Below, one piece after another: positions 26,529 to 40,902 of a DNA stretch of 64,000 bases. Origin of the DNA: Escherichia phage UE-S5b; the sequence record PP301341.1. One strand, given 5' to 3'. Under the pieces are notes generated by a model. The model saw nothing but the letters and a program-made list of their open reading frames with translations. It was not told the origin of the DNA and ran no database searches. Position 1 is the first letter of the stretch. Each line of letters begins with the position of its first letter. The position numbers and the translations under genes are program-made.

Positions 26529-29500
26529 TTGAACAGGAAACATGCTATGTCAACATTTGACCGTCTGGCAGGTTTCGCAGACAGCATCACTAATGCTAAG
26601 CAAGTCGATGTCTCTACTGCAACCTCTCAGAAGCAAGCTGCACAAGGGCAAAGCCCTTCCCAATTAACCCCAGAGAATGCTTACAATCTCCAAACTGGTC
26701 GTGTAGGTAATCTTGGAATCGGTGCATTCGAACCAGGTTCACTTCAGGCAGATTTCACGCAAGCCTCCCCATTAGAAATTCTTAATAAATACGGTAATGA
26801 GCAAGGTCTACAGATTCTTAATAGCCGGGCTAATGCTGCTGATGCTGTACGTCAGGACTTATCTAAACAACGTACTAACGCAGAAGCATTTGGTGATACT
26901 CTTTCTGGTGTTGGTCTTGGTGTTGCTAATACCCTTGGGGGCATTGCTGCTCTTGGCACAGGTCTGGTCAATGATAATGCCGGGGCATCCATTGCTTCCG
27001 GTATGGATTGGCTGAATGAAGGGGTACACAATCTACAGTCTGATGCTCTGAATGCTACCCGTAAGGTTGTTCAGAATCAGAACCAGATTTCTGCACAAAA
27101 GAACCAGAAACTCTACGAAGAAGACATTAAAAATGGAGAGAGCAGTTTGGTTGCCTCTCTGTCTCGTATTGGTCGTGATGCTTTTGATTCTGTTGCTAAT
27201 ACGCTTGATAATGGTATGGCTGCTACTGATGGGCTGAGTGAAGGTGTTGGTTCTCTCTTTACCGGTGGTCCATTAATTCGTGGTGTATCTGCACTCGGTA
27301 AAGTAATGGTAGGTGGTGATAAAGCTGTTAAGGGTATTACCTTAGCTGCTGAGTTAGGTTCACGTCCTGCACAGGTTGCATTGTCTGCTGGTCGTGTTGC
27401 TGCACCTGCTATTGCAATTGGTGGTATGGAAGCTGGTGGTGCATACCAACAGACTGCTTCCGAAATCATGAAGATGTCCCATCAAGAATTGGCAAGTAAG
27501 TCTCCTGTTTATCAACAGCATATCGCTGATGGTTTATCTCCTGATGAAGCACGTCGCCAAACTGCATCTGAAACGGGTATCATTGCTGCTGGCTTAACTG
27601 CTCCGGTTGCTGCTGCTACTGGTCCTCTGGTATCCAAATTTGAACTTAACCCACTTAAGGTAGGTTCGCTGGCTGGTGCTGGTTCTAACATGCTACGTGA
27701 AACAGTAGAAGAAGGTATTCAGTCTGGTACAAGTCAGTTTGCACAGAACAAGGCAATTCAGGGTAATGTAGATGCTAAGCGTGATTTGCTTAAAGGTGTC
27801 GGTGAGCAAGCAGGTCTTGGTGCACTCTACGGCTTCGGTAGTGCTGGTGTTGCTCAGGCTCCAGGTACAACTGTTAAAGCTGTTGGTGCTTCTGCTGGGC
27901 CTGCTTTACGTACTACTCTGGCTGGTGCTTCTCTGGTTGGTAGTGCATTAGCAAAAGCTGCCTCTCCTATTACTAACATCCTGGTTCAGCGTGGCGAAGA
28001 AGTTGCTAAGCGTAATGAACAAGCTTCCCCTGTATCTGATGCTACGGTTAATGCTGCTGCACAAGAAGCTACTGCTCAAGCAGAACAAGCACAAGCAACT
28101 GTACAAGAAGCAGTAGATGCAATGGATATTTCTCCTGAAGAGAAAGCTGCTGCTACTCAGTATGCTGCTGACTTAACTCAGGCAATGAAATTTGACCCAG
28201 TAGAACTGGAACAAGCTAACCCAGCAATCCGTGAAGCTGTTTCTGGTTCCACTAACCGTGTTGAAGCTATTCAGAAGATGGCTGACCTGGTTAATACTGC
28301 CGAAGACCCTAACGTTCAAATGGAAGCTGCAATCCAGATGTATGACAACATCATGTCTATGGATAGCTTCATTAACCGTGATCCTGGTGCTTTAGCTAAT
28401 CTGGAACAGGGTTCTCCTGCTGCTAATATTGTTGACCAGTTCTCCGGCCTGATGGCTAACGTTCAGAATACACCAAAGGTACTTCGTGCATTCCGTGCCA
28501 TCCATTCTATGATTCAGGAACAGGCTGAAGCAGGTAAACTGAAAGCTACCGAAGAAGCTAACCAAGCCCAAGCAAACAACATTGCTATGGCTGCTGATAT
28601 GTCTCCAGAAGTACTGGATGCAGACTCAGTGAACATGGTTCTGAAACATGCAAGTGAAGGTAAGATTACACTGGGGAATCGTCAGCGTGCTGCCCTGCAA
28701 TCTGCTGCTGCTCTATTGCAAGGAGCACGAGAATTTGACGCTAAAGCAGAAGAACTAGGCTTACGTCCTCAAGACATTGTTAGTAAACAGATTAAAACCG
28801 ACGAGTCTCGTTCTAATGAAGGTCAGTACTCTGCGTTGCAACATGCTAAACGCATTCGTTCTGCGTACAACTCTGGTAACTTCGATTTGGCTTCCGCTTA
28901 CCTCGACGACTTTATGAAGTTCGCCCAGCACATGCAGAATAAGGTCGGAGCGTTGAATGAGCATCTGATTTCTGGGAATGCGGATAAGAATAAGTCTGTC
29001 CATTATCAGGCTCTTACTCCCTCCCGTGAATGGGTACGTAGTCGTACTGGTCTTGGTGTCAATCCGTATGATACCAAGTCGGTTAAGTTTGCCCAGCAAG
29101 TAGGACTGGAGGCCAAAACCGTAGCTGATATTGCTAACGCACTTGCTACGGCTTACCCGGAGCTTAATGTTTCTCATGTGAAGGTTACTCCATTAGATTC
29201 ACGTCTGGACAAGCCTGCTGCCCAGGTAGTTAAAGAGTTCCGTCAAGGTGGTCTTGATGCCACTCAGTCTCAACAGACCAATGAACCAGTGAATCAGGTT
29301 GATGAAACTCCTGCACCAGCGCAAGAGACTACTACTACTGTACAGCCTAAAGCTAAACCAGTGGTAGAAAATAAGACTGTTCCTGTTAAAGAGGCTAGTT
29401 CAAAAGCAGAAGAAGTCTCTACTACTAAGTCTGAAACAGTAGATGCTACCCTCACCAATGAGGATACCACTCAAAAAGTAGCTGAAACTAAAACGGAAAT

Positions 29501-32500
29501 GGAAACAGTTTTCCCTGTCTATAACAATGACAAGACACCGAACCAGTTCCTGAAATCATTTACCCTGCCGGAAGAACCTAAGTCTCGCACCATTGGTTCT
29601 GAATCCCCTTTGACTGATATTAAGCAAGCACTGTCTTCTACTGCACGCTTTGAAGCATTCACTCAAAAAGAAAATAACGCTCTCACAAGTGATGTGATTA
29701 AGCGTTATCAGGACTTAATGGGCTTTGGTGAAACTCTGAAGACTACTCTGTCTGATCGTCTGGCTAAGTTTCTTGCTAATAAGAACGTTGGTAAACGCTT
29801 TGCAGAAGGCACAGAGGCTAACCGTTGGGTAGGTGGTAAGTTACTTAATATCGTAGAGAAAGACGGAGACACCTTTAAGTTCAATGACCAGTTGTTAGAG
29901 ACTGCTGTACTTGCTGGTCTGCAATGGCGACTGACTGCTACACAGAATGCTGCTGTTAAAGACATGAAAGATGTAGCTGCTATTACTGGAGTAGAAGCAT
30001 CCTTGTTACCTGAAGGTATCCTGGCTGAATTTGAGAATGCTCAGACTCTGGTTGAAGCTACTAACTCACTGGCTCAAAAGATTGAATCTTACTGGGGATT
30101 GAATCGTAATCCTAATGCACCACTGGGTTATACCAAAGGTATTCCAATGGCAATGGCTACAGAGATTCTGTCTTCTCTCATTGAGATGGGTGAAGTTAAA
30201 GAGTCTATGCTTGATGTGTCTGAGATTGACCCAGACTCTAATAAGACCGTCGGTCTGTATACCATTGAGAAGCTGGATGATAACGATGCCATTAACAAGT
30301 TCCCTACTGCTATCGAGGAAGCTGTTCTCGTAGAACCAGAAGAGAAAATGTACTTTGGTGATGATATTCCTTCCGTGGCTCAAACTCAGTTACGTAACCC
30401 TGCTGTTAAGAATACCCCAGAGCAGAAAGCTGCTCTTAAAGCAGAACAGGCTACCGAGTTCCGTGTACACATGCCGATGGTTAACTTCTATGAAGCATTA
30501 GGTCGTGACAACATTCTGGAACTGATGGGTGCTGGTACTCTTAATCCTGAACTGCTGAACGTGAACACTGCTAAGTCACTGGAGGGTAAAAACCTGTCAG
30601 TGTCTATGGCATATGATTCCCTGTTCGGTGTAATCAACCAGTTACAGGAACAGGAGAATGGTCTGGATACGCCTATTCACTATGGTTACAACATGACCCG
30701 TGTAGGTCGTATGCAGATGTTAGGTAAGAACAACCCACAGTCCAGCAAGCTGGTTCGTGAAGCAATTCTGCCAACCTTCTCTACTATCGACTTAAGTAAT
30801 GAAAACAGTCAGACGTTCTCTGATTTCCAGTTAGGTCTGTCTCAGGCATTAGGTATCAAGGTTCATAATATGTCCCGTGAAGCTATGTCTGAAAAACTGA
30901 CCAAAGCTCTGGAAGGTAATTTGAAACCTGCTGTTGATATGATGGTTGAGTTTGATAAGTCCGGGCACTTACCAGCCGATGCAGTAGATATTCTTAAGAC
31001 ATCTCTGGGTGGTGATAAATCATTCGTAGCTCTTATGGCTCTTATGGAGTATGCCCGTTACCTGAACAGTGATGACCGTGCCAACTTTAATACCCCACTG
31101 TACGTTGAAGCCGATGGTGTAACCAACGGACCAATCAACGCAATGGTATTAATGACTGGTGGTAAGTTCACTTCAGACTGGATTAAGAATACTGCTAAAG
31201 GTGGTCTGTTCTTCGGTAAAGCTGGTAAGACTATGAATGAACATCGTTCACAGGATGACAGTGTTGACCTGTATGAAGCATCTACCAATGGTCTGCAACA
31301 AGCACTTAATGAGTTACGTACTACTTACCGTAACAACGTTCCGGTTATGAACCAAATGAATCATCTTCAGAAGTTAATGGACCTGTTTATTAAAGACTTT
31401 AACCTGAATGAAGACGGTACTCTGGACCTGAAACGTGGTATCGCTAAAAACCCACTGACCATTACCATCTATGGTTCAGGTGCTCGTGGTATTGCTGGCA
31501 AGATGGTTAGTGCAATTACTGACACCATCTATGAACGATTCAGTGATGTTCTGCAAGCTCGTGCTGCTGACCCTAGTATTTCCCCAGCTATGGCAATGTT
31601 TGGTAAGGAGGCTGCGTCTGAGGCTGATGCTCAGGCTATGCTGGATACTTTCCTTACTTCTATGGAAGCACTGACTGGTAATGTTCCAGTTATGCGTAAA
31701 GGTGAATTGTCTATTCAACAGGTAGAAGGTGCTCTGACTGGTAAGTTAGACCCTCAGAAGTTTACCGTATCGGGTAATGCCCTGAAGAACTTACAAGAGA
31801 ACATGCTTCACCTGTTCGTTGAACCAATGCGTACTGGTATCCGGAATACTGTTGGGGAAGGTCTGATGCATTCTACTGAGAACTTGCAGAAGGCTACCCA
31901 GATTCAGTCTTTGGTTCTACAAGACATGTTCCAACAAGCAGTACAGGCTAAGCTGGCAGAAAAAGAAAAAGACCCAACCTGGAAGAAGGGTGATTTCTTA
32001 ACACAGAAAGAACTGAATGAAATTCAGGAATCATTGTCTCCACTGGCTCCAATGATTGAGACTGGTTCACAGACTTTCTATATTGCTGGTAGTGAGAATA
32101 CTGATGTTGCTAACCAGGTACTGGCTACCAACTTAGATGACCGTATGCGTGTGCCAATGAGCATCTATGCTCCTTCTCAGGCAGGCGTTGCAGGTATTCC
32201 ATTTATGACCATTGGCACTGGTGATGGCATGATGATGCAGACCCTTTCTACTATGAAAGGTGCTCCGAAGAATACCCTGAAAATCTTTGATGGTATGAAC
32301 ATTGGTATCAACAACATCACTGATGCAAGTCGTAAAGCTAACGAGGCTGTATACACTTCCTGGCAGGGTAACCCTATCAAGAATGTTTATGAGTCTTTTA
32401 CTAAGTTCATGAAGAACGTAGACTTCAGCAAACTATCTGATGAAACCAAACAGGCTATCGCTAAATCTGCTCTGGAATATGACCAGCGTGAAGGTGCTAC

Positions 32501-35500
32501 CGATGACCTGTTACGTGTTGGTGCTGAACAGATTGAACGTAACCTGCGTAATATTGCTCTGGGTGTAGATATTCGTCACAAAGTAATGAACCAGGTACAG
32601 ACTACTGTTGACCAGATGGCTGCTGTTGGTGCTCCTTATGTGAACAACGGTAAAATCTCTCTGGAAGGTCTGACCGTAGACCAACAAGTAGCTAAGCTAA
32701 ATGAACTGTTCGATGCTGAATTAAACAAACGTCGTGATGCAGTACGTGCTGCTAAAGTAGAACCAGTGAAAGAAGTGCCAGCAATGGAACAGGTTGGTCG
32801 TGTACTGAAGTCTGGTGTACGCCTACTGTCTAATACTGCTATCTCTAAGCTGGCTAAAGAGATGTCTCCGGAACAGCAAGCAGTACTGAAAGAAGTACAG
32901 AAATCCCTTGCTGCTAAAGACTATAAGGTTGTTTACGGTACACCTTCCCAACTGGATGCTTATGCTATTGAGAAGAATATTACTCGCCCAGCACCAGAAG
33001 ATATTGAAGCTGCTGAAGCTGGTAATGCGTATGGTTGGACTAACTTTGAAGATAAGACCATCTACTTAGTTACCCCTTCCTTAGAGACTCTGGTTCATGA
33101 ATTGGTGCATGCTTCTACTTTTGAATCTGTACTGGCTCACTATGAGGGTACTCCTAATGAAGCGGTCCAGAACATTGAAGACCTGATGAACCAGTTCCGT
33201 GCTCTGGATGTTAAGGATGAATCCCCGGCAGTTCGGGAAGCATATGCAGATGCTCTTAATACTATTAACGGTCATTTATCTAATGGCTTTATTGAGCCAG
33301 CAATGGCTAAAGCTGCTGCACTGAATGAGTACATGGCATGGGGTTTAACCAACCGTGAACTGATTAGTAAGCAGAAGAAAACCACTGCACTTAAGACTAT
33401 GGTTCAGGCTGTATATGAAGCAATTAAACGTCTGGTATTCGGGCGTAAGAAAGCACCAGCTAATGCAGATGATATGTTCTCTGGCTTACTGTTTAACTCG
33501 TCCGTAGTTATGCGTGGGCAAGCTCCTACTGCTGCTGTAGCCAAAGATACTACTCTGTTCCATAACAAAACGTATGGTGACAATACTCGTCTGGAAGAGC
33601 TAGGGAAAACCTTCGATAAACTGATTACTGACTACATTGGTTCTGAACCAGTACAGCAAGTAATTCGTAAAGGTAAGTTCTCTGATGCAGTGGTTAATGC
33701 GACTAAAGTAACTCGTGATGTTCAGGCTCATGGCTTCACTATGAATATGCAGGAACAACGTCTCTTTACTAACATTGTTGCTGCTCTGGCTACTGAGGCT
33801 GCTATTAATCCTGCTGCTCTGGCTCGTGCGCAGGAATACTACACACATGTTACTAAGAACCTGACCGTTGAGTCATTCATGNCTGACCCAGATAGTACTA
33901 ACCCTGCTGACCGTTACTATGCACAGCAGAAGTTCGATACCATCATGGGTGCTAACAACATTGAGTTTGATTCACAAGGTCGTTCCTCCTTACTGCCTAC
34001 CTTTATTGGTCTGGCGATGGTAAGTGAAGAGGTACGTAAAGTGCTGGCTGATATTCCAGTTATGAAAGTAGACAAGAAATCTGGCAATACCGCTGATGCA
34101 ATGCTGACTAACATCGGTACTGCTGCAATGGCTAGTCTGAATGCTCGTGTAGCAGGAGATACTAAAGCTACCAACGTACAGGAAGGTATGGATGCACTGG
34201 CTCAGACAATCATGCAGACCAGTCTTAATGCACAATCCTTCTATGATTCCGTTGCTACTCCTACGGGTAATGCTATTGATCGTGCTAACCAGTATCTGGT
34301 GGACTCTATTGATGTACTGTCTACCCGTGCTTTAGAAGGTGCTCGTGAAGTTGCAGCTAATACCAAGAACCCGTTGGTTAAAGGTGCTGCCCATGCTGCA
34401 CAATTAATAGCTGCTATTGCTACAGAGAAGAATGGTGCAATCGTAGCCGAAGGTGTTATGGCTGCAATGAACCAGGGTAAGGTATGGCAACCTTTCCATG
34501 ACCTGGTTAATGACTTAACTGGTCGTACTAAGAGCAATGCTTCTGTATATGATTTGATTAAAGCAGTGCGTGCACAGGTACAGGCTGACCGTCAACAGTT
34601 CCGTGAACATCTGCCCACCACTATTGCATCTAAGTTCAGCCGTAAGCTTACTAATGATGAGTGGAAAGCAATGCATACCGGTATGGGTAAAACCGACTTA
34701 GCTGTTCTGCGTGACACTATGTCTCTGGGTGAAATTCGTGACTTGCTGACTGACCAAAAGATTGTTGACCGTGAAGTGAATAAGCTGGAAGCAGATTTGC
34801 AGAAACAAGCAGGACGTAACTGGCCTTTGATTAGCCGTAAATCTAAGCAACTGGCTCAGTACATGATTAATGGCACAGTTGGTAATAACTTGCTGCGTAA
34901 TGCTACTGCAATCTCTCGTATGCTGGGTGAACGACAGGCTGCACGTTCTACTGTAGACGTAGCTCAACTGGATAAACTGATTACTCTGTATGCACTGGAA
35001 GCAATGAGTAAGACTGACCGTGAGATGTTATCTTCACTGGCTCAATCAGAGATTGAAGGCATGGACTTCGCTACTTCTTATCTGGTTGGTCAGCGTAAAG
35101 ATGAAATGGCTAAAGCCAAATCTGATACTCGTGCAACTCTGAACCAGTACAAAGGGTATATTCCTGGTGAGACTAAACAGGGTGTTAACTTGATTGTTGC
35201 TGAAGATAGTCAGTTTGCTGATTTGATTGAGAAGTCCTATGTACGTCTGGGTACTTATCAGGGTAGCTCTGCTAATCGTGGTCCAGCACGTAGCTACTAC
35301 TTTGCACCGGTACAGGCACAGGCTCCATTCTCGCAAGGTATCTTACAGAACGTTCGCAATACTGCTGGTGGTGTAGACCTTGGTACAGGCTTTACGATGG
35401 GTACAATGGTAGCTGGTCGTATCACTGACAAGCCTTCTGTAGACCGTATCACTAAAGCACTGGCTCGCGGTGAACGTGGTAATGAACCACTGCTGCCTGT

Positions 35501-36899
35501 ATATGATGATAAAGGCAATGTGGTTGCTTATGAGCAATCTATTGACCCTAACATGCTGAAGCACATTGAGGGTGAGAACCATCTCGCTCGTGCAATCGGT
35601 GTATGGCGTGGTCGTCAGGTAGAGGAAGCTAAGGCTCAGCGTTTCAACGATATGCTGATTGAGAACCTGCATAGCATGTATAAAAACGACATTAAAATGT
35701 CTGCCTCTAACAAGTCACAGTACGTTAACCTTCTTGGTTCTAAACTGGACCCAGTAACTGCTGATGCCCTTAAGCTGATGAACAGTGAAACTCGTCAGAA
35801 AGCAGAAAGTCTGTTTGGTCCTGGTGAGTTGTGGGTACGTCGTGACATGCTGAATGATGCACTGGGCTATCGTGCAGCTTCCGTAGGTGATGCCTGGTCT
35901 GGCAATTCTCGTTGGTCACCAGAAACACTGGATACCTTCAAGAAAGCTATGTTGGGTGTATTCGGCAACCGTGCTTATAAGTATGTAATGGGTGGTGAGA
36001 ACCTGGTTCAAAACTTAGTTAAAGAAGCCAAAACTCTGATTGTAGTTAAGTCAGTAGTTGTTCCTGCTGTTAACTTCCTGGCTAACCTTTACCAGATGGT
36101 TGGTCGTGGTGTACCTGTTAAGAACATTGCTAAGAGCATTCCACAGAAGACTGCTGAGATTAACCAGTACCTGAAATCTCGTCTGCGTCAGGTAGATGCA
36201 GAAGCAGANTTACGTGCAGCTACTAACCCGAACCAGATTCGTAAGCTTAAGGCTGAAATTCAGTCCATCACTGATAGTCATAAGCGTATGAGTATCTGGC
36301 CTCTGTTAGAAGCTGGTGAGTTTTCTTCAATTGCAGATGCTGGTATTGGACGAGATGACATCCTGATTACTGAAGGTAAACTTCACGAATACATGGATAA
36401 ACTGGCTGATAAGTTACCTAAGTCTGTACGTAATGCTGGACGTTATGCCCTTATCACCAAGGATACTGCTTTATTCCAGGGTATCCAGAAGACGGTTGAG
36501 TACTCTGACTTTATTGCTAAAGCAATCATCTATGATGATTTGACTCAGCGTAAAGGTAAGACTCGTGAAGAAGCACTTGGACGTGTAACGGAAGAGTTCA
36601 TTAACTATGACCGTCTGCCTGGTCGCTTCCGTGGGTATATGGAAAGTGTTGGTCTTATGTGGTTCTATAACTTTAAGATTCGTTCTGCAAAAATTGCAGT
36701 ATCCATGATTCGTAACAACCCGGTACACGCAGCTATGGCTATGTTGGCTCCAACTCCTACCATGTTTGGTAATGTTGGTTTACCTATTCAGGACAACATC
36801 TTCAGTATTGCTGCACAAGGCAATCTCGGTTACTCCTGGGGCTTCGGTCAGGGACTTCGTGCCCATAACCTTAACCCTTGGCTCAATCTAGCTAACTAA
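26529..36899 (+). CDS. giant virion-encapsidated RNA polymerase (N4 vRNAP-like)
   Basis: Single 3456-aa ORF; central region has a T7-class motif B with exact spacing R-x3-K-x7-YG (RGIAKNPLTITIYGSG, ~nt 31430) and a downstream motif-C-like KIFDGMNIG; lies at the end of the structural module as in N4-like phages. Confidence 0.85.
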   Translation: MNRKHAMSTFDRLAGFADSITNAKQVDVSTATSQKQAAQGQSPSQLTPENAYNLQTGRVGNLGIGAFEPGSLQADFTQASPLEILNKYGNEQGLQILNSRANAADAVRQDLSKQRTNAEAFGDTLSGVGLGVANTLGGIAALGTGLVNDNAGASIASGMDWLNEGVHNLQSDALNATRKVVQNQNQISAQKNQKLYEEDIKNGESSLVASLSRIGRDAFDSVANTLDNGMAATDGLSEGVGSLFTGGPLIRGVSALGKVMVGGDKAVKGITLAAELGSRPAQVALSAGRVAAPAIAIGGMEAGGAYQQTASEIMKMSHQELASKSPVYQQHIADGLSPDEARRQTASETGIIAAGLTAPVAAATGPLVSKFELNPLKVGSLAGAGSNMLRETVEEGIQSGTSQFAQNKAIQGNVDAKRDLLKGVGEQAGLGALYGFGSAGVAQAPGTTVKAVGASAGPALRTTLAGASLVGSALAKAASPITNILVQRGEEVAKRNEQASPVSDATVNAAAQEATAQAEQAQATVQEAVDAMDISPEEKAAATQYAADLTQAMKFDPVELEQANPAIREAVSGSTNRVEAIQKMADLVNTAEDPNVQMEAAIQMYDNIMSMDSFINRDPGALANLEQGSPAANIVDQFSGLMANVQNTPKVLRAFRAIHSMIQEQAEAGKLKATEEANQAQANNIAMAADMSPEVLDADSVNMVLKHASEGKITLGNRQRAALQSAAALLQGAREFDAKAEELGLRPQDIVSKQIKTDESRSNEGQYSALQHAKRIRSAYNSGNFDLASAYLDDFMKFAQHMQNKVGALNEHLISGNADKNKSVHYQALTPSREWVRSRTGLGVNPYDTKSVKFAQQVGLEAKTVADIANALATAYPELNVSHVKVTPLDSRLDKPAAQVVKEFRQGGLDATQSQQTNEPVNQVDETPAPAQETTTTVQPKAKPVVENKTVPVKEASSKAEEVSTTKSETVDATLTNEDTTQKVAETKTEMETVFPVYNNDKTPNQFLKSFTLPEEPKSRTIGSESPLTDIKQALSSTARFEAFTQKENNALTSDVIKRYQDLMGFGETLKTTLSDRLAKFLANKNVGKRFAEGTEANRWVGGKLLNIVEKDGDTFKFNDQLLETAVLAGLQWRLTATQNAAVKDMKDVAAITGVEASLLPEGILAEFENAQTLVEATNSLAQKIESYWGLNRNPNAPLGYTKGIPMAMATEILSSLIEMGEVKESMLDVSEIDPDSNKTVGLYTIEKLDDNDAINKFPTAIEEAVLVEPEEKMYFGDDIPSVAQTQLRNPAVKNTPEQKAALKAEQATEFRVHMPMVNFYEALGRDNILELMGAGTLNPELLNVNTAKSLEGKNLSVSMAYDSLFGVINQLQEQENGLDTPIHYGYNMTRVGRMQMLGKNNPQSSKLVREAILPTFSTIDLSNENSQTFSDFQLGLSQALGIKVHNMSREAMSEKLTKALEGNLKPAVDMMVEFDKSGHLPADAVDILKTSLGGDKSFVALMALMEYARYLNSDDRANFNTPLYVEADGVTNGPINAMVLMTGGKFTSDWIKNTAKGGLFFGKAGKTMNEHRSQDDSVDLYEASTNGLQQALNELRTTYRNNVPVMNQMNHLQKLMDLFIKDFNLNEDGTLDLKRGIAKNPLTITIYGSGARGIAGKMVSAITDTIYERFSDVLQARAADPSISPAMAMFGKEAASEADAQAMLDTFLTSMEALTGNVPVMRKGELSIQQVEGALTGKLDPQKFTVSGNALKNLQENMLHLFVEPMRTGIRNTVGEGLMHSTENLQKATQIQSLVLQDMFQQAVQAKLAEKEKDPTWKKGDFLTQKELNEIQESLSPLAPMIETGSQTFYIAGSENTDVANQVLATNLDDRMRVPMSIYAPSQAGVAGIPFMTIGTGDGMMMQTLSTMKGAPKNTLKIFDGMNIGINNITDASRKANEAVYTSWQGNPIKNVYESFTKFMKNVDFSKLSDETKQAIAKSALEYDQREGATDDLLRVGAEQIERNLRNIALGVDIRHKVMNQVQTTVDQMAAVGAPYVNNGKISLEGLTVDQQVAKLNELFDAELNKRRDAVRAAKVEPVKEVPAMEQVGRVLKSGVRLLSNTAISKLAKEMSPEQQAVLKEVQKSLAAKDYKVVYGTPSQLDAYAIEKNITRPAPEDIEAAEAGNAYGWTNFEDKTIYLVTPSLETLVHELVHASTFESVLAHYEGTPNEAVQNIEDLMNQFRALDVKDESPAVREAYADALNTINGHLSNGFIEPAMAKAAALNEYMAWGLTNRELISKQKKTTALKTMVQAVYEAIKRLVFGRKKAPANADDMFSGLLFNSSVVMRGQAPTAAVAKDTTLFHNKTYGDNTRLEELGKTFDKLITDYIGSEPVQQVIRKGKFSDAVVNATKVTRDVQAHGFTMNMQEQRLFTNIVAALATEAAINPAALARAQEYYTHVTKNLTVESFMXDPDSTNPADRYYAQQKFDTIMGANNIEFDSQGRSSLLPTFIGLAMVSEEVRKVLADIPVMKVDKKSGNTADAMLTNIGTAAMASLNARVAGDTKATNVQEGMDALAQTIMQTSLNAQSFYDSVATPTGNAIDRANQYLVDSIDVLSTRALEGAREVAANTKNPLVKGAAHAAQLIAAIATEKNGAIVAEGVMAAMNQGKVWQPFHDLVNDLTGRTKSNASVYDLIKAVRAQVQADRQQFREHLPTTIASKFSRKLTNDEWKAMHTGMGKTDLAVLRDTMSLGEIRDLLTDQKIVDREVNKLEADLQKQAGRNWPLISRKSKQLAQYMINGTVGNNLLRNATAISRMLGERQAARSTVDVAQLDKLITLYALEAMSKTDREMLSSLAQSEIEGMDFATSYLVGQRKDEMAKAKSDTRATLNQYKGYIPGETKQGVNLIVAEDSQFADLIEKSYVRLGTYQGSSANRGPARSYYFAPVQAQAPFSQGILQNVRNTAGGVDLGTGFTMGTMVAGRITDKPSVDRITKALARGERGNEPLLPVYDDKGNVVAYEQSIDPNMLKHIEGENHLARAIGVWRGRQVEEAKAQRFNDMLIENLHSMYKNDIKMSASNKSQYVNLLGSKLDPVTADALKLMNSETRQKAESLFGPGELWVRRDMLNDALGYRAASVGDAWSGNSRWSPETLDTFKKAMLGVFGNRAYKYVMGGENLVQNLVKEAKTLIVVKSVVVPAVNFLANLYQMVGRGVPVKNIAKSIPQKTAEINQYLKSRLRQVDAEAXLRAATNPNQIRKLKAEIQSITDSHKRMSIWPLLEAGEFSSIADAGIGRDDILITEGKLHEYMDKLADKLPKSVRNAGRYALITKDTALFQGIQKTVEYSDFIAKAIIYDDLTQRKGKTREEALGRVTEEFINYDRLPGRFRGYMESVGLMWFYNFKIRSAKIAVSMIRNNPVHAAMAMLAPTPTMFGNVGLPIQDNIFSIAAQGNLGYSWGFGQGLRAHNLNPWLNLAN

Positions 36900-37555: not shown

Positions 37556-37936
37556 TCAGATTGTACAACCACCACCATCACAGGTGTTGTTTTCTGCAAA
37601 GGAAGCCAGAGCTTTAGCAGTCTCTTCTTTCTCATGCAGTGCCTGACGTAGCAGGTAACCTTCTAATTCCCAAATCTTATTGAATGCATTTTCATATGCA
37701 TACTGACGGCCTTTTTGCTCATCATAGATAGCTGGGTCAACACAGGCAGATACACCTTCAACTTTGAAGCCATTTTCCAAGATGATAATGCAATAGGTTA
37801 TNAGACCCAGGTTAGCCAAATCATCTGCCGGGAGTGCAGATGGATCAACAAATGCAGACTTCACTGCATCAGCTCCATTAAAATAGTAGACGCTCTTAAT
37901 CTTAGCTTCGATTGCTTCTTTACTTACTGTTGCCAT
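37556..37936 (-). CDS. conserved phage protein, N4 gp49 / Sf6 gp66-family-like
   Basis: About 126 aa from MATVSKE; segment ...ENGFKVEGVSACVDPAIYDEQKGRQYAYENAFNKIWELEGY... resembles this family as recalled, and the gene sits next to the vRNAP terminus. Confidence 0.5.
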   Translation of the reverse strand: MATVSKEAIEAKIKSVYYFNGADAVKSAFVDPSALPADDLANLGXITYCIIILENGFKVEGVSACVDPAIYDEQKGRQYAYENAFNKIWELEGYLLRQALHEKEETAKALASFAENNTCDGGGCTI

Positions 37937-38105
37937 TATTAGCCTCATAGAGTGGTTTGAGTTTGTACTTAAACATGACTGCGTTGTTATAGGCTACGCT
38001 ACCTGCAAACACCAAAGACTTGCGTCCTCGATTATCCGTTACCTCATAGGCATACGGGGTTGAGATTAGGTCAATCATATTGATTATCCAATTATTAATA
38101 CTCAA
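37920..38105 (-). CDS. hypothetical small protein
   Basis: 61-aa ORF continuing the minus-strand operon. Confidence 0.3.
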   Translation of the reverse strand: MSINNWIINMIDLISTPYAYEVTDNRGRKSLVFAGSVAYNNAVMFKYKLKPLYEANNGNSK

Positions 38106-38386
38106 ATAAAAAAGTCCCCCAGAGTGACGGCTCCAGGGGACTTAGTACTATTTACCCATAGCTGGGAGGCTTTTGGTTCTTACCACGAAGACAGTCCACG
38201 CTGACNAGNCTTGGGATTGATAGTCCCGTTCCTGTGGTAATTACTCAGGCTAGGATTTAAGGAGTTCCTATTCTCCAGCGAAATTCCCGTCGANGGGAAT
38301 AACAATACAATAGCAGNCACTGGACTGTCTTACCAGTGTTGTCTTTAGAGTGCNATGCAATCAGGACTATGTTACTGCTGAATGGG

Positions 38387-38460
38387 TGTCCACTACTGGA
38401 TTTGAACCAGTGACTTTCCGATTATTAGTCGGTTGCTTTCCCCGTCTAAGCTAAGTGGAC
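38387..38460 (-). tRNA. tRNA (anticodon loop CUAAUAA; anticodon reads AAU, unusual, assignment uncertain)
   Basis: Reverse complement folds as a cloverleaf: perfect 7-bp acceptor stem GTCCACT/AGTGGAC, D-stem GCTT/AAGC, T-arm ACTGG-TTCAAAT-CCAGT; 74 nt. Confidence 0.6.
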
Positions 38461-38466
38461 TTATTA

Positions 38467-38542
38467 TGGTTACCCAGGCAGGATTCGAACCTGCGTCCTA
38501 GTTGGTTTACTAGTGGGGCTTTACCACTAAGCCTACTGGGTA
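38467..38542 (-). tRNA. tRNA with encoded CCA (anticodon unresolved; anticodon arm has a 6- or 8-nt loop, possible indel)
   Basis: Perfect 7-bp acceptor stem TACCCAG/CTGGGTA, D-arm GGCT-TAGTGGTAA-AGCC, T-arm GCAGG-TTCGAAT-CCTGC, 3' ACCA. Confidence 0.6.
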
Positions 38543-38842: not shown

Positions 38843-38954
38843 CAGTGGGGGATGGAATCGAACCATCAGTATTAAGTCTTATTCGTGCACCAAGCACGCT
38901 AGTAGATTACTCTACCGGAGGGAATCGAACCCTATCTACTTCACCAGACCCACC
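38843..38954 (-). ncRNA. long tRNA-like element (~112 nt) containing two T-arm-like motifs
   Basis: T-arm GATGG-TTCGATT-CCATC with a 3' acceptor strand CCCCACT; the only complementary 5' strand (GGTGGGT, 6 of 7 pairs) lies ~105 nt upstream; a second TTCGATT motif sits inside. Confidence 0.3.
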
Positions 38955-39039
38955 ATAATTCTTCCAATTTAGAGTAGCATTGTCACGGTGGGTGCTTTAA
39001 ATGCCGGGAAACATTTAAATATACAATGCTACTTTGAAT

Positions 39040-39163
39040 TGGTTATCAGTGAAGGATTCGAACCTCCGGTTGGAGTCTATAGCTTACCGCAGCAGCCCTC
39101 CAATCTAGCGGTGTCACACTTAGTCCAAACTTGAACATGTCAAGCCATCTCGTGCAACTGATA
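39040..39163 (-). ncRNA. long tRNA-like element (~121 nt) with perfect acceptor stem and encoded CCA
   Basis: T-arm GGAGG-TTCGAAT-CCTTC + ACTGATA-A-CCA; the perfectly complementary 5' strand TATCAGT is 114 nt upstream; internal 6-bp stem TTGGAG/CTCCAA. Confidence 0.35.
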
Positions 39164-39165
39164 AT

Positions 39166-39231
39166 TGGTTCCGGCGTCTGGACTCGAACCAGAACACTCA
39201 TGCCGTGCACGACACTAGTACCTACACCGGA
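39166..39231 (-). ncRNA. short tRNA-like element (~63 nt + CCA)
   Basis: Acceptor stem TCCGGTG/CGCCGGA (one G-U), T-arm TCTGG-TTCGAGT-CCAGA, encoded CCA, but only ~31 nt between acceptor and T-arm, too few for standard D and anticodon arms. Confidence 0.35.
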
Positions 39232-39298
39232 ATTAATTGCCAGGGATTCCACCTGGCTCCATCTGTTTTTATAGTCACTCAGATATCGTCTGGACTGT

Positions 39299-39376
39299 AG
39301 GCATGGGTGGGAATCGAACCCACAAACCATTCAGCACTGTAGCCTCACGCTCTACCTATTTGAGCTATCACATACC
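39299..39376 (-). tRNA. tRNA-like gene with canonical D-arm and T-arm but unresolved anticodon arm
   Basis: D-arm GCTC-AAATAGGTA-GAGC, T-arm GTGGG-TTCGATT-CCCAC, acceptor GGTATGT/CCATGCC (6 of 7 pairs); no clean 5-bp anticodon stem found. Confidence 0.4.
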
Positions 39377-39639
39377 ATTGATTAACTCCCCGTTTCTAAT
39401 ACATGGACGGGGACACTCCACGGTCGTTTGATAATCAGGACGACTCACTCCTGACTGACGCTTGGCTTATTAGGCTGCCATCAGAACAACATCATCGTTT
39501 GCATTTATGTTATTGGTTCGTTTCTAAAAAACCGCATAATCGCTTACGAAAACTATCAAAGAGTACACTAGCTCTGGGCCACGCTTGTGGANATCGGCCT
39601 ACCTTCCACAGCTAATCAACTAATGCACTCACTGATAGC

Positions 39640-39880
39640 CCATAATAGGGGGGAGGGGACGAATCCTCCCTTTATACCCTATATTGCATGTAAGATCTAA
39701 CAGTTCGATGTTGTAGGTAGCTAGGCTATCCGACATTTAACCCAGCCCATATAGGGGCTTATGTGATTAGAATGCTCAACATTGAGCGGTTAGTTTGATA
39801 AGGGATCTGAAGCCTTATCCTAAAGATACTAACCTTTGGGATATAGCCTAAGATTCAGAAATGGCCCCTATAGGAAGAGG
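39640..39880. repeat. three copies of a GC-flanked TATAGG motif (AGCCCATA(A)TAGGGG / GGCCCCTATAGGAAGAGG) in a non-coding region
   Basis: Seen at ~39641-39660, ~39742-39757 and ~39863-39878, spaced ~100-120 bp, all in the same orientation; CCCTATAGGG core is palindromic. Confidence 0.4.
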
Positions 39881-40050
39881 CCATTGATTAACCCGAATGT
39901 TGCTTTACATTTTCTGTGATAACCGATTCTTAAAATAGTCTGTCTGACGGATGGGGGGCCACCCCTAGCGTCAGTGCCATACGGCAAAGATTAAGTTAAG
40001 AAAGGTTATGATAGGAGTTCCTATCTCAAAGGATTCTAACAGAACCCTTC

Positions 40051-40227
40051 ACGATATTAACTACTCTTTTTTAATGCCTTTACTTCACCATCTTTATACC
40101 AAGCATATGGTATTAAGATTTTGCAACCTTCTGAATCAATGTGGAATGCTTTGTTCCCTTCAACAGGTTCTCCACCCACGAAAGAACTAACCTTTCCATT
40201 GAGCCAGTGAATAGTAAATTTGTTCAT
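40051..40227 (-). CDS. hypothetical small protein (58 aa)
   Basis: Hand-translated minus-strand ORF MNKFTIHWLNGKVSSFVGGEPVEGNKAFHIDSEGCKILIPYAWYKDGEVKALKKSS; below the 60-aa track cutoff. Confidence 0.25.
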
Positions 40228-40458
40228 GTTAACCNNGTTTGAACCAATCCCCTTCNGAGAGTATTAAAGGGGACTGGTTCGGTTGTTGTTATTCTGGCGG
40301 CTTGTCACCACCGTGTTTACCACTGCATTTCCACAGGATAATGACAGTGATGATAAAAGCTATGTATGGAGCCGACACGTCTATAATCCTGACCAGTAGT
40401 AGCATCAGGACTATAAACACTACCACACCTAGCAGCAGCTTCTGAGCCACCTACCAGA

Positions 40459-40902
40459 TTAACTACGTTTAAGGCCAGCGAACAGTGAAGGTTTCGCAGC
40501 AGGTTTCTCTGCTGGTTCTTCAGCCTTAACCTCTTCCTGCACAACTTCTTCTTGTGCTTCTGGTTCAGTTACTGCTTCTTCTTCAGGTTCCGGCGTAGAA
40601 CTCTCGTTCGGACCACCAGTAGAGGTCTGGATTTCTTCTCCCTTTACCNCTTCAACCACTTCTTCTGGTTCCGGTTCTACCGGACGGTGTTTAGCTTCCT
40701 GAGGGTTCTTACGAGAACGACGTGTCTTCTTCTCTACCAAGGGCGGAGTATCATCGTTATGACTTACCTCTTCGTTAATACCAACGGAGGCTGTACCATC
40801 TGCATTGATGACAATACTAATGTCTCCAGCAAGATTGATTTGATCATCGACATAAGCCTGTACAGCAGCTTCTACTTCGGACTGGTTCAAAATGATTTGC
40901 AT
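40459..40902 (-). CDS. acidic Pro/Glu-rich protein (unknown function)
   Basis: 147-aa ORF, folded N-terminal ~50 aa then a low-complexity PEPEEE-rich tail; abuts the resolvase gene. Confidence 0.45.
   Translation of the reverse strand: MQIILNQSEVEAAVQAYVDDQINLAGDISIVINADGTASVGINEEVSHNDDTPPLVEKKTRRSRKNPQEAKHRPVEPEPEEVVEXVKGEEIQTSTGGPNESSTPEPEEEAVTEPEAQEEVVQEEVKAEEPAEKPAAKPSLFAGLKRS

Follow-up and report, generated by a model that had tools for sequence, protein, structure and literature searches.

A probable tmRNA-derived tag RNA complementary to host tmRNA, within a predicted array of structured RNAs in Escherichia phage UE-S5b

The 64,000-nucleotide (nt) stretch of Escherichia phage UE-S5b DNA analysed here (sequence record PP301341.1; hereafter the window) contains, on the minus strand at positions 39386-39553, an element that we call the tag RNA and regard, with high confidence, as an unannotated homologue or descendant of the coding piece of a two-piece transfer-messenger RNA (tmRNA). 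Its 5' arm is complementary to the tmRNA of Escherichia coli, and we are equally confident that this complementarity is non-random. An original prediction had singled out the interval 39420-40050 as a non-coding region with three copies of a TATAGG motif, which could be phage promoters, replication-origin iterons or a structured RNA. The RNA structures and their conservation, the coding-type variation seen in the tag, the undetected tRNA-like domain and the complementarity described below were all obtained by computation. Judged from these sequences, the locus as a whole probably comprises an array of structured minus-strand RNAs together with a tmRNA-derived tag RNA that would dock on host tmRNA.

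Tag frame, pseudoknots and distribution of the tag RNA

In a permissive Rfam scan, the tmRNA_permuted model (RF04321) matched minus-strand positions 39470-39572 with 32.7 bits (E = 1.2e-4 locally and 0.007 over the whole window), which falls below the Rfam gathering score of 47; RF00023 matched the neighbouring T-arm only (15.5 bits). The RF04321 match is centred on AUAAAU GCA AAC GAU GAU GUU GUU CUG AUG GCA GCC UAA UAA, a tag frame of tmRNA type (Table 1). Like E. coli tmRNA, with its U85 and A86, the tag RNA has a U at -5 and an A at -4 before the resume codon, and the peptide that it specifies, ANDDVVLMAA, can be set beside the E. coli tag, ANDENYALAA. Thus the alanine resume codon, the A at -4 and the hydrophobic and alanine C-terminal tail by which tmRNA tag frames are recognized are all present. 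Across the family there are 13 distinct tag-coding sequences, each of 10 codons plus a stop and all in frame, which specify seven peptides (ANDDVVLMAA, ANDDLMMVAA, ANDDLMLMAA, ANDDLMLAAA, ANDNAYLMVA, ANEEAYLMVA and ANEEMYLAVA; the tag of phage P1 is ANDDLMMVAA). An eighth, ANDDQFLAVA, was found later in an Enterobacter phage. Synonymous variants occur within a single peptide, ANDDVVLMAA alone having four different coding sequences; GCC, GCG and GCU all occur as the last codon, leucine is CUG or UUG, and one UAA stop has become UAG. The other two reading frames of the tag RNA are unconserved, and the +1 frame (AUG CAA ACG.., 5-7 amino acids) was rejected since neither its length nor its sequence is conserved.

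Two H-type pseudoknots resembling PK2 and PK3 of tmRNA follow the tag, as expected of a tmRNA; PK1, of which one strand only is present, does not form in cis. The second stem of the PK2-like pseudoknot, judged by eye, is GUCG/CGAC, CCGA/UCGG or CCAG/CUGG depending on the lineage. When pairs were counted over four helices (the never-varying 5' hairpin, one PK2 stem and both PK3 stems), 98.3% of cells were paired, compared with 38-51% when the partners were slid. Seven pairs had changed on both sides, and the covariation score was reached by none of 500 shuffles. A profile of the family (nhmmer) also finds true phage tmRNAs, at E values of 1e-7 to 1e-3 and over a stretch that opens shortly before the resume codon and runs past the end of the tag, in a comparison whose tmRNA loci had been pre-selected by a 16-mer of the same resume region. 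Furthermore, the 5' part of the tag RNA is collinear, minus 18 nt, with the permuted tmRNAs that ARAGORN calls in two viral metagenome loci (L010 and L019).

As a 176-nt element, the tag RNA occurs in 314 phage records, which include Salmonella, Escherichia, Klebsiella, Serratia, Shigella, Cronobacter, Erwinia and Enterobacter phages. In P1 it lies in the ban leader, between the 'dicF-like region' and tRNA-Asn, and in the lambdoid phage HK633 between PR'/qut and the holin gene; further carriers are Ackermannviridae (Vi1-like), N4-like Klebsiella and Salmonella phages and siphoviruses of 46-48 kb. It is also present in 657 of 5426 complete E. coli genomes (~12%), with 555 of its 705 places there on plasmids. 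Nowhere in the phage or E. coli records is it annotated as RNA, and the small open reading frames (ORFs) called over it belong to no PHROG family. Within the genus Gamaleyavirus it is a presence/absence cassette, found in the window, ECBP1, IME11, PhAPEC5 and Bas96, and missing from G7C, HK2, U1G and pSb-1; UE-M6 and Bp4 are further carriers. In the 46-48-kb siphoviruses (Bas78, 22340-23010, loci L006/L140; also L117 and L015) it heads a predicted non-coding transcription unit of ~650 nt, which opens with a TTGACA-17-TAGATT promoter, closes with an intrinsic terminator and is made of successive long-stem cassettes (ACAACAGGUAAGAGCAUU ... AGUGCUCUUUCCGUUGU); the tail genes are on the opposite strand, to which the unit is antisense. 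The two ORFs called over this unit in Bas78, Bas78_0056 and Bas78_0057, have no PHROG family. Two IMG/VR contigs (L043 and L114) carry another tag frame, ANDDSFEVARLAA, with no tmRNA called by ARAGORN, and possibly belong to a second family that lacks the tRNA-like domain and whose phages infect another host. A text search of the literature found no description of a phage tmRNA-like or anti-tmRNA RNA, and nothing relevant on P1 ban-leader transcripts.

A tRNA-like domain, sought as an acceptor stem with a G3.U70 pair, a T-arm and a 3' CCA, was not detected. ARAGORN called no tmRNA in the 16 family loci of the scan and called permuted tmRNAs in eleven control loci; it was likewise negative for the family loci of P1, phiMAM1, Bas78, the window, SP-058, HK633, pYD38-A and Ag3. 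The complete 46.5-kb Bas78 genome gave no tRNA and no match to a tRNA or tmRNA domain at E <= 1. In the Rfam alignment of the tag region, 112 tRNA-domain positions of the model are deleted, and the nearest candidate in the window, the GGGAGG-AUUCGUCC-CCUCCC hairpin, is just T-arm-like. True permuted genes have GGGGGUG (acceptor strand) and GGAAUUCGA (D-loop analogue) directly before UUUUCGU, and the tag RNA family is without those 21 nt. What stands before GUUUUCGU is the end of a long hairpin in the window, phiMAM1, Ag3, SP-058 and L015, a terminator hairpin in P1, and, 6-8 nt upstream, a TTGACA-17-TAGATT promoter in Bas78 and pYD38-A. It appears probable from these sequences that the tag RNA has lost its tRNA-like domain. 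Two ways of completing the molecule were rejected. One was a one-piece tmRNA from 39632 to 39041, in which UAUCAGU would supply the 5' acceptor strand and a downstream tRNA-like unit (U3, below) the 3' end, by its T-arm and ACUGAUA-ACCA. It fails because the 5' copy pairs and covaries locally within the long hairpin (as in PhAPEC5) and U3 has a 5' strand of its own. The other used the upstream two-tier hairpin (Table 1) as the acceptor piece of a permuted tmRNA; despite the parallel gene order, it was set aside because that hairpin lacks both a CCA and acceptor complementarity and has a 12-nt spacer. Nor does this hairpin lie upstream of the tag RNA in P1, Bas78 or pYD38-A.

Pairing of the 5' arm with host tmRNA

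The 5' arm of the tag RNA was compared with ssrA of E. coli K-12. Of its 30 nt, 27 pair with tmRNA nt 68-104 in three collinear blocks (-31.2 kcal/mol): arm nt 18-29 (block C) with tmRNA 68-79 (UAAAAAGCCGCA, the 3' strand of PK1), arm nt 11-17 (block B) with 85-91 (UAGUCGC, taking in U85, A86 and the first two resume-codon bases, with G90), and arm nt 1-8 (block A) with 97-104 (ACGAAAAC, codons 3-5). Dinucleotide-shuffled tmRNAs gave -19.0+-1.7, none of 60 being as good, and a second set gave -19.6+-2.5; 150 shuffled arms gave -19.4+-2.3 with a best value of -26.3. Against these shuffles the z score of the window arm is -4.6 to -7.1. Among 18 arms from different phage lineages, 17 have their best site in tmRNA at this same target (z -1.8 to -7.1). 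Some lineages have additions of their own that bring the pairing to 29-31 bp: in P1 (GUUUUCGUC..GUU) and L038 a variable insert between the first two blocks adds pairs, and in phiMAM1 the same codons are paired by a CUCGUCGU block located elsewhere. The controls, namely the equivalent regions of four true permuted tmRNAs, E. coli nt 14-44 and the reversed arm, were flat (z +1.8 to -0.8), and the arm pairs with the phage's own tag region at only -13.9. Thus the complementarity is extended, collinear, beyond chance and kept across lineages, as would be expected of an antisense RNA to tmRNA. Our literature text search found no natural RNA that targets tmRNA. A whole-length RNAduplex comparison of the tag RNA with tmRNA was uninformative (shuffle mean -87), and the arm-restricted analysis alone discriminates. 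A helix-2-like pairing of the arm with downstream RNA was rejected, values of -19 to -32 kcal/mol being obtained at unrelated sites with no consistent partner.

Across the Enterobacterales the target is conserved, with a UUAAAAG variant in Enterobacter; it diverges more in Aeromonas and some Vibrio. The arm of an Enterobacter cloacae phage reads CUUUUAA and matches the Enterobacter variant, and the E. coli phages tested have (C)UUUUUA, a hint that the arm is matched to the tmRNA variant of the host.

We tentatively propose from these sequences, as a possibility that falls somewhat short of probable, a class of phage RNA that would dock on host tmRNA through ~27-31 bp, mask the host resume codon and tag, and supply a phage tag in their place. 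Transcription and processing of the RNA, formation of the hybrid in vivo and use of the phage tag are steps that we infer. The phage tag RNA would hybridize to host tmRNA, with block C replacing the 5' strand of PK1 stem 2 and blocks B and A sequestering the host resume codon and first codons, so masking the host tag template. The tag RNA would leave the hybrid at the PK1 end and continue through a 21-nt A-rich linker, with its own U(-5)A(-4), to its GCA resume codon. Once a ribosome had been rescued by SmpB and the tRNA-like domain of the host, the tag that it added would be the one specified by the phage. An altered fate of the tagged proteins would be a likely consequence and is the most speculative step. 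To recognize the E. coli tag, ClpX depends on the Leu-Ala-Ala at its end; among the phage tags the endings are LMAA, MVAA, LMVA, LAVA and LAAA.

Several observations weigh against this proposal. The complementarity is statistically weaker in phiMAM1 (z -1.8) and P1 (z -2.7) and absent from the metagenomic variant L073 (z -1.0). The host matching rests on a single phage with a known Enterobacter host, and a near-invariant target gives it low power; Ag3, a Shigella isolate, has an Enterobacter-type arm that does not fit its recorded host, and pYD38-A, recorded on Vibrio, mismatches the Vibrio/Aeromonas variant. Within host tmRNA the PK1 3' strand (nt 68-78) is itself paired and would have to be displaced. 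GUUUUCGU is also present in true permuted tmRNAs, as part of helix 2, and part of the arm is therefore inherited sequence. Two-piece tmRNAs do work with their tRNA-like and message parts joined only by base pairing (PMC11915505), but the natural ones are joined by the acceptor stem and helix 2, not at the position where the arm would dock. As for the array, covariation in its genus-invariant module E (below) is minimal.

A simpler rival is that the tag RNA is a pure antisense inhibitor of host tmRNA, which would block the resume site or guide RNase III cleavage and in this way shut off trans-translation or tagging, and that its tag frame is an inherited relic that is not decoded. The same complementarity data fit this rival, and pairing across U85-C91 should block frame setting: A86 is essential for that process, and an A86 mutant is proposed to have lost tmRNA activity through base pairing around the resume codon (nt 85-90; PMC2481249). 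The tRNA-like-domain-only tmRNA of phage DS6A has likewise been suggested to be a tmRNA inhibitor (PMC4131195). However, the tag frame keeps its length, stop, GCN last codon and synonymous changes in 13 sequences from at least five phage groups, the U at -5 and the A at -4 are kept, and two post-tag pseudoknots, superfluous in a plain antisense RNA, are held by compensatory changes. Pure antisense thus leaves the maintenance of the tag frame and pseudoknots unexplained, and we consider it unlikely.

TATAGG motifs and the surrounding RNA modules

Much of what the original prediction described was confirmed. The three TATAGG motifs are same-orientation copies spaced by 107 and 119 bp, the hairpins that it named lie at 39651-39670 (GGGAGG..CCTCCC) and 39860-39885 (AATGGCC..GGCCATT), and there is no credible ORF, the only candidates being of 35-70 amino acids and disrupted by 1-nt indels among relatives. 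The motif search that it proposed found no copy elsewhere in the 64 kb. The pattern GCCCMTA[N]TAGGR has three matches on the two strands of the window, all of them motif copies, against 0.07 expected from shuffles, a figure that overstates the significance as the pattern was drawn up post hoc from the copies. The core CCYATAGG alone is not enriched (2 matches against 3.5 expected), and the copies have ~12 nt in common. As a conserved repeated site, on the other hand, the motifs could not be upheld. In an alignment of nine Gamaleyavirus genomes, from which conservation was judged, only copy 3 is kept, unchanged save for loop indels and one G-to-A substitution. Copy 2 is present only in the window and ECBP1, is swapped for a different small GC hairpin in PhAPEC5 and Bas96 and is deleted in G7C, IME11, HK2, U1G and pSb-1; in copy 1 the AGCCC half is variable. 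Because two of the three copies are unconserved, the repeat reading fails by the original prediction's own criterion of conservation in related genomes.

The three motifs are very probably parts of different stem-loops in the minus-strand array: each is the AU-rich loop and GC closing pairs, or one strand, of a separate stem-loop (Table 1). The U.G pair in the stem of the motif 3 hairpin is U-A in HK2 and pSb-1; read on the plus strand it would be mismatched as C.A. In Bas88 and ECBP2 the loop of the motif 2 hairpin is CUCAU. Motif 1 is the 3' strand (CCCUAU) of the outer helix of a two-tier hairpin with a T-arm-like inner hairpin; the inner stem is GAGGGA/UCCCUC in IME11 and HK2, pairing being kept by a register-shifted compensation, and the two-tier hairpin is common to ~95 Kuravirus-type records. 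The original prediction had been puzzled that the motifs read rightward on the plus strand while the flanking genes are on the minus strand. They do read rightward, but the hairpins to which they contribute loop and clamp are minus-strand structures, like the flanking genes, so that the puzzle disappears. By themselves, then, the motifs are ordinary hairpin loops in a structured RNA region and no new class of promoter.

That the motifs are rightward plus-strand promoters for a phage single-subunit RNA polymerase (RNAP), of the T7 class or the N4-type RNAPII or virion RNAP (vRNAP), is most improbable. Their TATAGG(G/A) core does resemble the T7 initiation region, the phage has N4-type polymerase genes, among them a vRNAP ORF of 3456 amino acids, and ACGACTCACT, a 10-nt match to the T7 promoter core, occurs at 39440-39449 on the plus strand. 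This 10-mer, however, falls within the loop and stem of the first post-tag pseudoknot, which covaries on the minus strand, and is best taken as a chance match. The T7 consensus (23 bp, -17 to +6) has no match within 3 mismatches, and unlike T7-class promoters the motifs lack a -17 to -5 specificity region, lie on the wrong strand, are unconserved in the genus in copies 1 and 2, are embedded in hairpins and are not repeated before genes. They are confined to a 240-bp stretch and absent from the remaining 63 kb, and so stand before no other gene block; they are opposite to the genes, and no plus-strand gene follows until far past the tRNA cluster. The same modules are carried by Kuravirus and Suseptimavirus phages. 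Both depend for transcription on the host RNA polymerase, with a phage sigma factor, and are not known to have N4-type or T7-type polymerases. The vRNAP promoters of N4 are DNA hairpins of the early region with a 5-7-bp stem, a 3-nt loop and conserved flanks, and its RNAPII promoters are AT-rich. The motif hairpins have loops of 6-8 nt, in a locus among middle-gene homologues; the sole 3-nt loop is that of hairpin H1, which has a 9-bp stem and, in Kuravirus, a 4-nt loop. In addition, CCCCUAUUAUGGG (TATTAT) was rejected as a sigma-70 promoter for want of a usable -35 element at 16-18 nt.

Hardly more tenable is the proposal that the motifs are replication-origin iterons. Three co-oriented copies at ~110-bp spacing in hairpin-rich non-coding DNA would suit it, but the copies share ~12 nt where at least three well-conserved direct repeats of ~17-22 bp, kept in relatives, would be required, and two of the three are unconserved. 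Cumulative GC skew peaks at ~36 kb, at the switch in gene orientation, with no signal at 39.4-40.05 kb, and the modules are found separately in unrelated phages at unrelated genome positions.

On its sequence, the window is assigned to a G7C-like N4-type coliphage (Schitoviridae, Gamaleyavirus). It is 99.4% identical to Escherichia phage UE-M6 over the 2.3 kb compared. The vRNAP ORF (N4-type) occupies 26529-36899 on the plus strand; UE-M6, the closest GenBank record, labels it 'DNA polymerase'. From 36937 on, minus-strand genes are homologues of N4 gp49, gp48, gp47, gp46 and the gp45 SSB. The interval sits in a 2.5-kb gap between the homologues of gp47 (40459-40902) and gp48 (37556-37948), a gap that also holds two tRNAs found by ARAGORN and Rfam (38385-38542, minus strand). 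G7C has an extra HNH endonuclease gene (gp47.1) beside the locus, which the window is without. Ambiguous bases (N) stand at 39592, 40235-40236 and 40256, the first being a plus-strand C judging by relatives.

We take the interval to form, in all likelihood short of certainty, the upstream section of a ~1.7-kb minus-strand array (38.38-40.05 kb) whose modules are structured RNAs that do not code for protein. The array is co-oriented with the gp47 and gp48 homologues and the tRNA genes, all on the minus strand. Of the readings offered by the original prediction it is thus the structured RNA that has held, on the evidence of G.U-containing stems, compensatory changes, co-orientation with genes and a folding z score of about -6. 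The 505 nt at 39552-40056 fold better than shuffles, with z -6.2 for the minus strand and -5.2 for the plus strand; the G.U pairs of H1 and the motif 3 hairpin are standard on the minus strand only, and in every unrelated phage that shares a module it is co-oriented with its neighbours.

Table 1. Positions of the predicted elements in and around the array (numbering of the window)
Feature	Position	Strand	Description
56-amino-acid gene upstream of array	40057-40227	minus	phrog_14773; its stop codon is the array start
Sigma-70-like site at array head	40033-40060	minus	TTAATA-16-TGnTAGAAT; consensus match only; invariant in 9 Gamaleyavirus genomes
Hairpin H1	40029-40049	minus	AAGGGUUCU-GUU-AGAAUCCUU; one G.U pair
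Hairpin H2	40010-40025	minus	GAUAGG-AACU-CCUAUC
Hairpin	39944-39974	minus	CUGACG..GGGG-UGG-CCCC..CGUCAG
Motif 3	39863-39880	plus	GGCCCCTATAGGAAGAGG
Motif 3 hairpin	39860-39885	minus	AAUGGCCUCU-UCCUAU-AGGGGCCAUU; 10-bp stem
Hairpin	39816-39843	minus	UAUCCCAAAG..CUUUAGGAUA; mostly CUUUGGGAUA in relatives
Hairpin	39774-39787	minus	GCUCAA-UG-UUGAGC; common to Suseptimavirus/Kuravirus
Motif 2	39744-39757	plus	AGCCCATATAGGGG
Motif 2 hairpin	39744-39759	minus	AGCCC-CUAUAU-GGGCU; 5 bp; dispensable
Motif 1	39637-39651	plus	AGCCCATAATAGGGG
Motif 1 two-tier hairpin	39645-39682	minus	AUAGGG/CCCUAU outer helix stacked on GGGAGG-AUUCGUCC-CCUCCC
Long hairpin	39553-39638	minus	19-bp base CUAUCAGUGAGUGCAUUAG/CUAGUGUACUCUUUGAUAG (39553-39571 with 39620-39638)
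5' arm of tag RNA	39524-39553 (runs 39553 to 39524)	minus	GUUUUCGUAAGCGAUUAUGCGGUUUUUUAG; 30 nt
Tag frame, tmRNA type	39470-39502	minus	ANDDVVLMAA*; resume codon GCA, 10 codons, then a second UAA
PK2-like pseudoknot	39423-39454	minus	stem UCAGG/CCUGA; loop GUCG with downstream CGAC
PK3-like pseudoknot	39388-39421	minus	GUGGA/UCCAU and CCCC/GGGG; both stems covary
tRNA-like unit U1	39296-39375	minus	tRNA-Cys in UE-M6 annotation; directly 3' of tag RNA, outside the interval of the original prediction
tRNA-like unit U2	39166-39231	minus	66 nt; acceptor stem and T-arm only; 3' ACCA
tRNA-like unit U3	39040-39163	minus	124 nt; acceptor UAUCAGU/ACUGAUA; 3' ACCA
tRNA-like unit U4	near 38917-38932	minus

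The modules of the array differ in their distribution. Module E (39826-40056, which holds motif 3) was found by BLAST in 55 records, all Gamaleyavirus or close to it, at 94-99% identity. The segment 39636-39830, which holds motifs 1 and 2, was found in 150 records of Gamaleyavirus and Kuravirus-type phages; in a Kuravirus/Suseptimavirus intergenic region it has 78-80% identity and is always co-oriented with the flanking genes. No match to 39556-40056 was found in the 5426 E. coli genomes, and no Rfam family matched the upstream modules. Stems are kept where their sequences change: the Kuravirus version of H1 is AAGGAUUCU-UACG-AGAGUCCUU, with the wobble pair relocated, and the apex of the 39944-39974 hairpin varies as GGG-UUUAUG-CCC or GGG-UUAACU-CCC with pairing kept.

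The base of the long hairpin, whose end coincides exactly with the start of the tag RNA arm (39553), has multiple compensatory changes (CCAUCGGGGAGUACA/UGUACUCCCCGAUGG in PhAPEC5). At least three unrelated cassettes occupy its apex (39572-39619) in different members of the genus. In the window the apex is pseudoknot-like (GUGGA..GGCC..UCCAC..GGCC), and this same apex stands alone in Ackermannviridae, closed by a wholly different 11-bp stem. G7C and Salmonella phage FSL SP-058 have at the apex a tRNA-like element whose acceptor-like stem is of 7 bp. The T-arm of that element, UUAGG-UUCAACU-CCUAA, has the same T-loop as E. coli tmRNA. ECBP1 (874-949 of locus L131) and pSb-1 have a further tRNA-like insert exactly between CCUAUUAU and the long hairpin; it is annotated 'tRNA-Pseudo-ACA' and has CCTATT direct repeats on both sides, as if a mobile cassette had been inserted. 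From these comparisons, the modules are probably exchangeable cassettes shared piecemeal with unrelated phages. The upstream stem-loops most likely punctuate the array, serving its small RNAs in folding, stabilization or processing, a role that we would assign on predicted structure.

Downstream, four repeats of a T-arm sequence, GGAATCGAACC, at 38921, 39054, 39180 and 39310 (~130 nt apart, within 38917-39375 on the minus strand) mark four tRNA-like units (U1-U4) that neither ARAGORN nor Rfam called. U1 has the anticodon loop CUACAGU and two G.G mismatches in the anticodon stem. The U2 region (39163-39240) recurs with 100% identity in phage N4 (EF056009, 32860-32937), where it is unannotated, and is labelled 'tRNA-Undet' in two other N4-like genomes. 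One of the two called tRNAs, at 38467-38542 on the minus strand, has in ARAGORN an undetermined 2-nt 'anticodon' (ac) and in Rfam a tRNA score of 42.8 bits with the anticodon arm skipped; in UE-M6 it is labelled tRNA-OTHER.

A region of this kind might also be decaying tRNA or tmRNA debris with recombination scars, its hairpins being terminators or chance palindromes without function. The mosaic make-up and presence/absence variation, including the loss of the tag RNA from the four relatives named above and the variability of motif 2, would agree with decay, as would the T-arm-like relics and the several tRNA-like units that ARAGORN does not recognize. Decay would not, however, account for the near-identity of module E in its 55 genomes, for stems maintained through compensatory changes, for a tag RNA kept with coding-type variation in 314 records from very different phage groups, or for an arm that is complementary to a host RNA far beyond chance. 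We therefore regard this explanation as very unlikely and retain the array of structured RNAs with its tag RNA.

Significance and relation to known systems

If the proposed docking is correct, the tag RNA would be the first known case of a natural RNA directed against tmRNA, and its phages the first viruses known to swap the template of trans-translation instead of bringing a complete tmRNA. Proteins from stalled ribosomes in infected cells or P1 lysogens would receive a different degradation signal, since tags such as ANDDVVLMAA, ANEEAYLMVA and ANDDLMMVAA alter the ClpX-critical Leu-Ala-Ala end. This would also explain the long-known dependence of phage development on host tmRNA in some systems. 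The element occurs in classic model phages (P1, lambdoid, N4-like, Vi1-like and T1-sized siphoviruses), and there is a practical side as well, in that gene callers now place spurious small ORFs over tag RNAs.

Long RNase III stems bracket stable RNAs in rRNA operons and in T7 early RNA. The long stems of the array are similar in that helices of 15-22 bp flank an insert, the helix covarying while the insert is swapped. They differ in that the inserts here are small tRNA-like or pseudoknot cassettes, and cleavage would be a putative role. A second parallel is offered by AgvB and AsxR, the anti-small RNAs (anti-sRNAs) of enterohaemorrhagic E. coli prophages, which like the tag RNA are phage RNAs that base-pair with an abundant host non-coding RNA. 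These, however, sponge Hfq-dependent regulatory sRNAs, and no phage anti-sRNA is known to target tmRNA or to bring a replacement template.

Phage tmRNAs themselves are well documented, with 79 phage sequences in the tmRNA database together with the tRNA-domain-only form of mycobacteriophage DS6A (PMC11915505, PMC4131195). DS6A resembles the present case as a phage with a partial tmRNA for which interference with host trans-translation has been proposed (PMC4131195, PMC11915505), but it has the tRNA-like domain without a tag and no antisense arm, and the tag RNA is the opposite half.

The closest relatives are the coding pieces of permuted two-piece tmRNAs, which among phages are known chiefly from marine ones (PMC9004378). 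With these the tag RNA shares the GCA resume codon with its U(-5) and A(-4), the 10-codon ANDxxxxxxA tag with a small hydrophobic tail and double stop, the small hairpin around the stop codon, the post-tag pseudoknots and the 5' sequence GUUUUCGU..GCGG..ACUGA..CCAC..AAAUGCAAACGAU, which is collinear with L010 and L019. It differs in having no acceptor 5' strand, no D-loop analogue and one strand only of PK1, in having no acceptor piece (T-arm, acceptor 3' strand and CCA) upstream, none being found anywhere in the Bas78 genome, and in scoring 32.7 bits against the Rfam gathering threshold of 47. Finally, whereas the 5' region of true tmRNAs is not complementary to host tmRNA, that of the tag RNA is.

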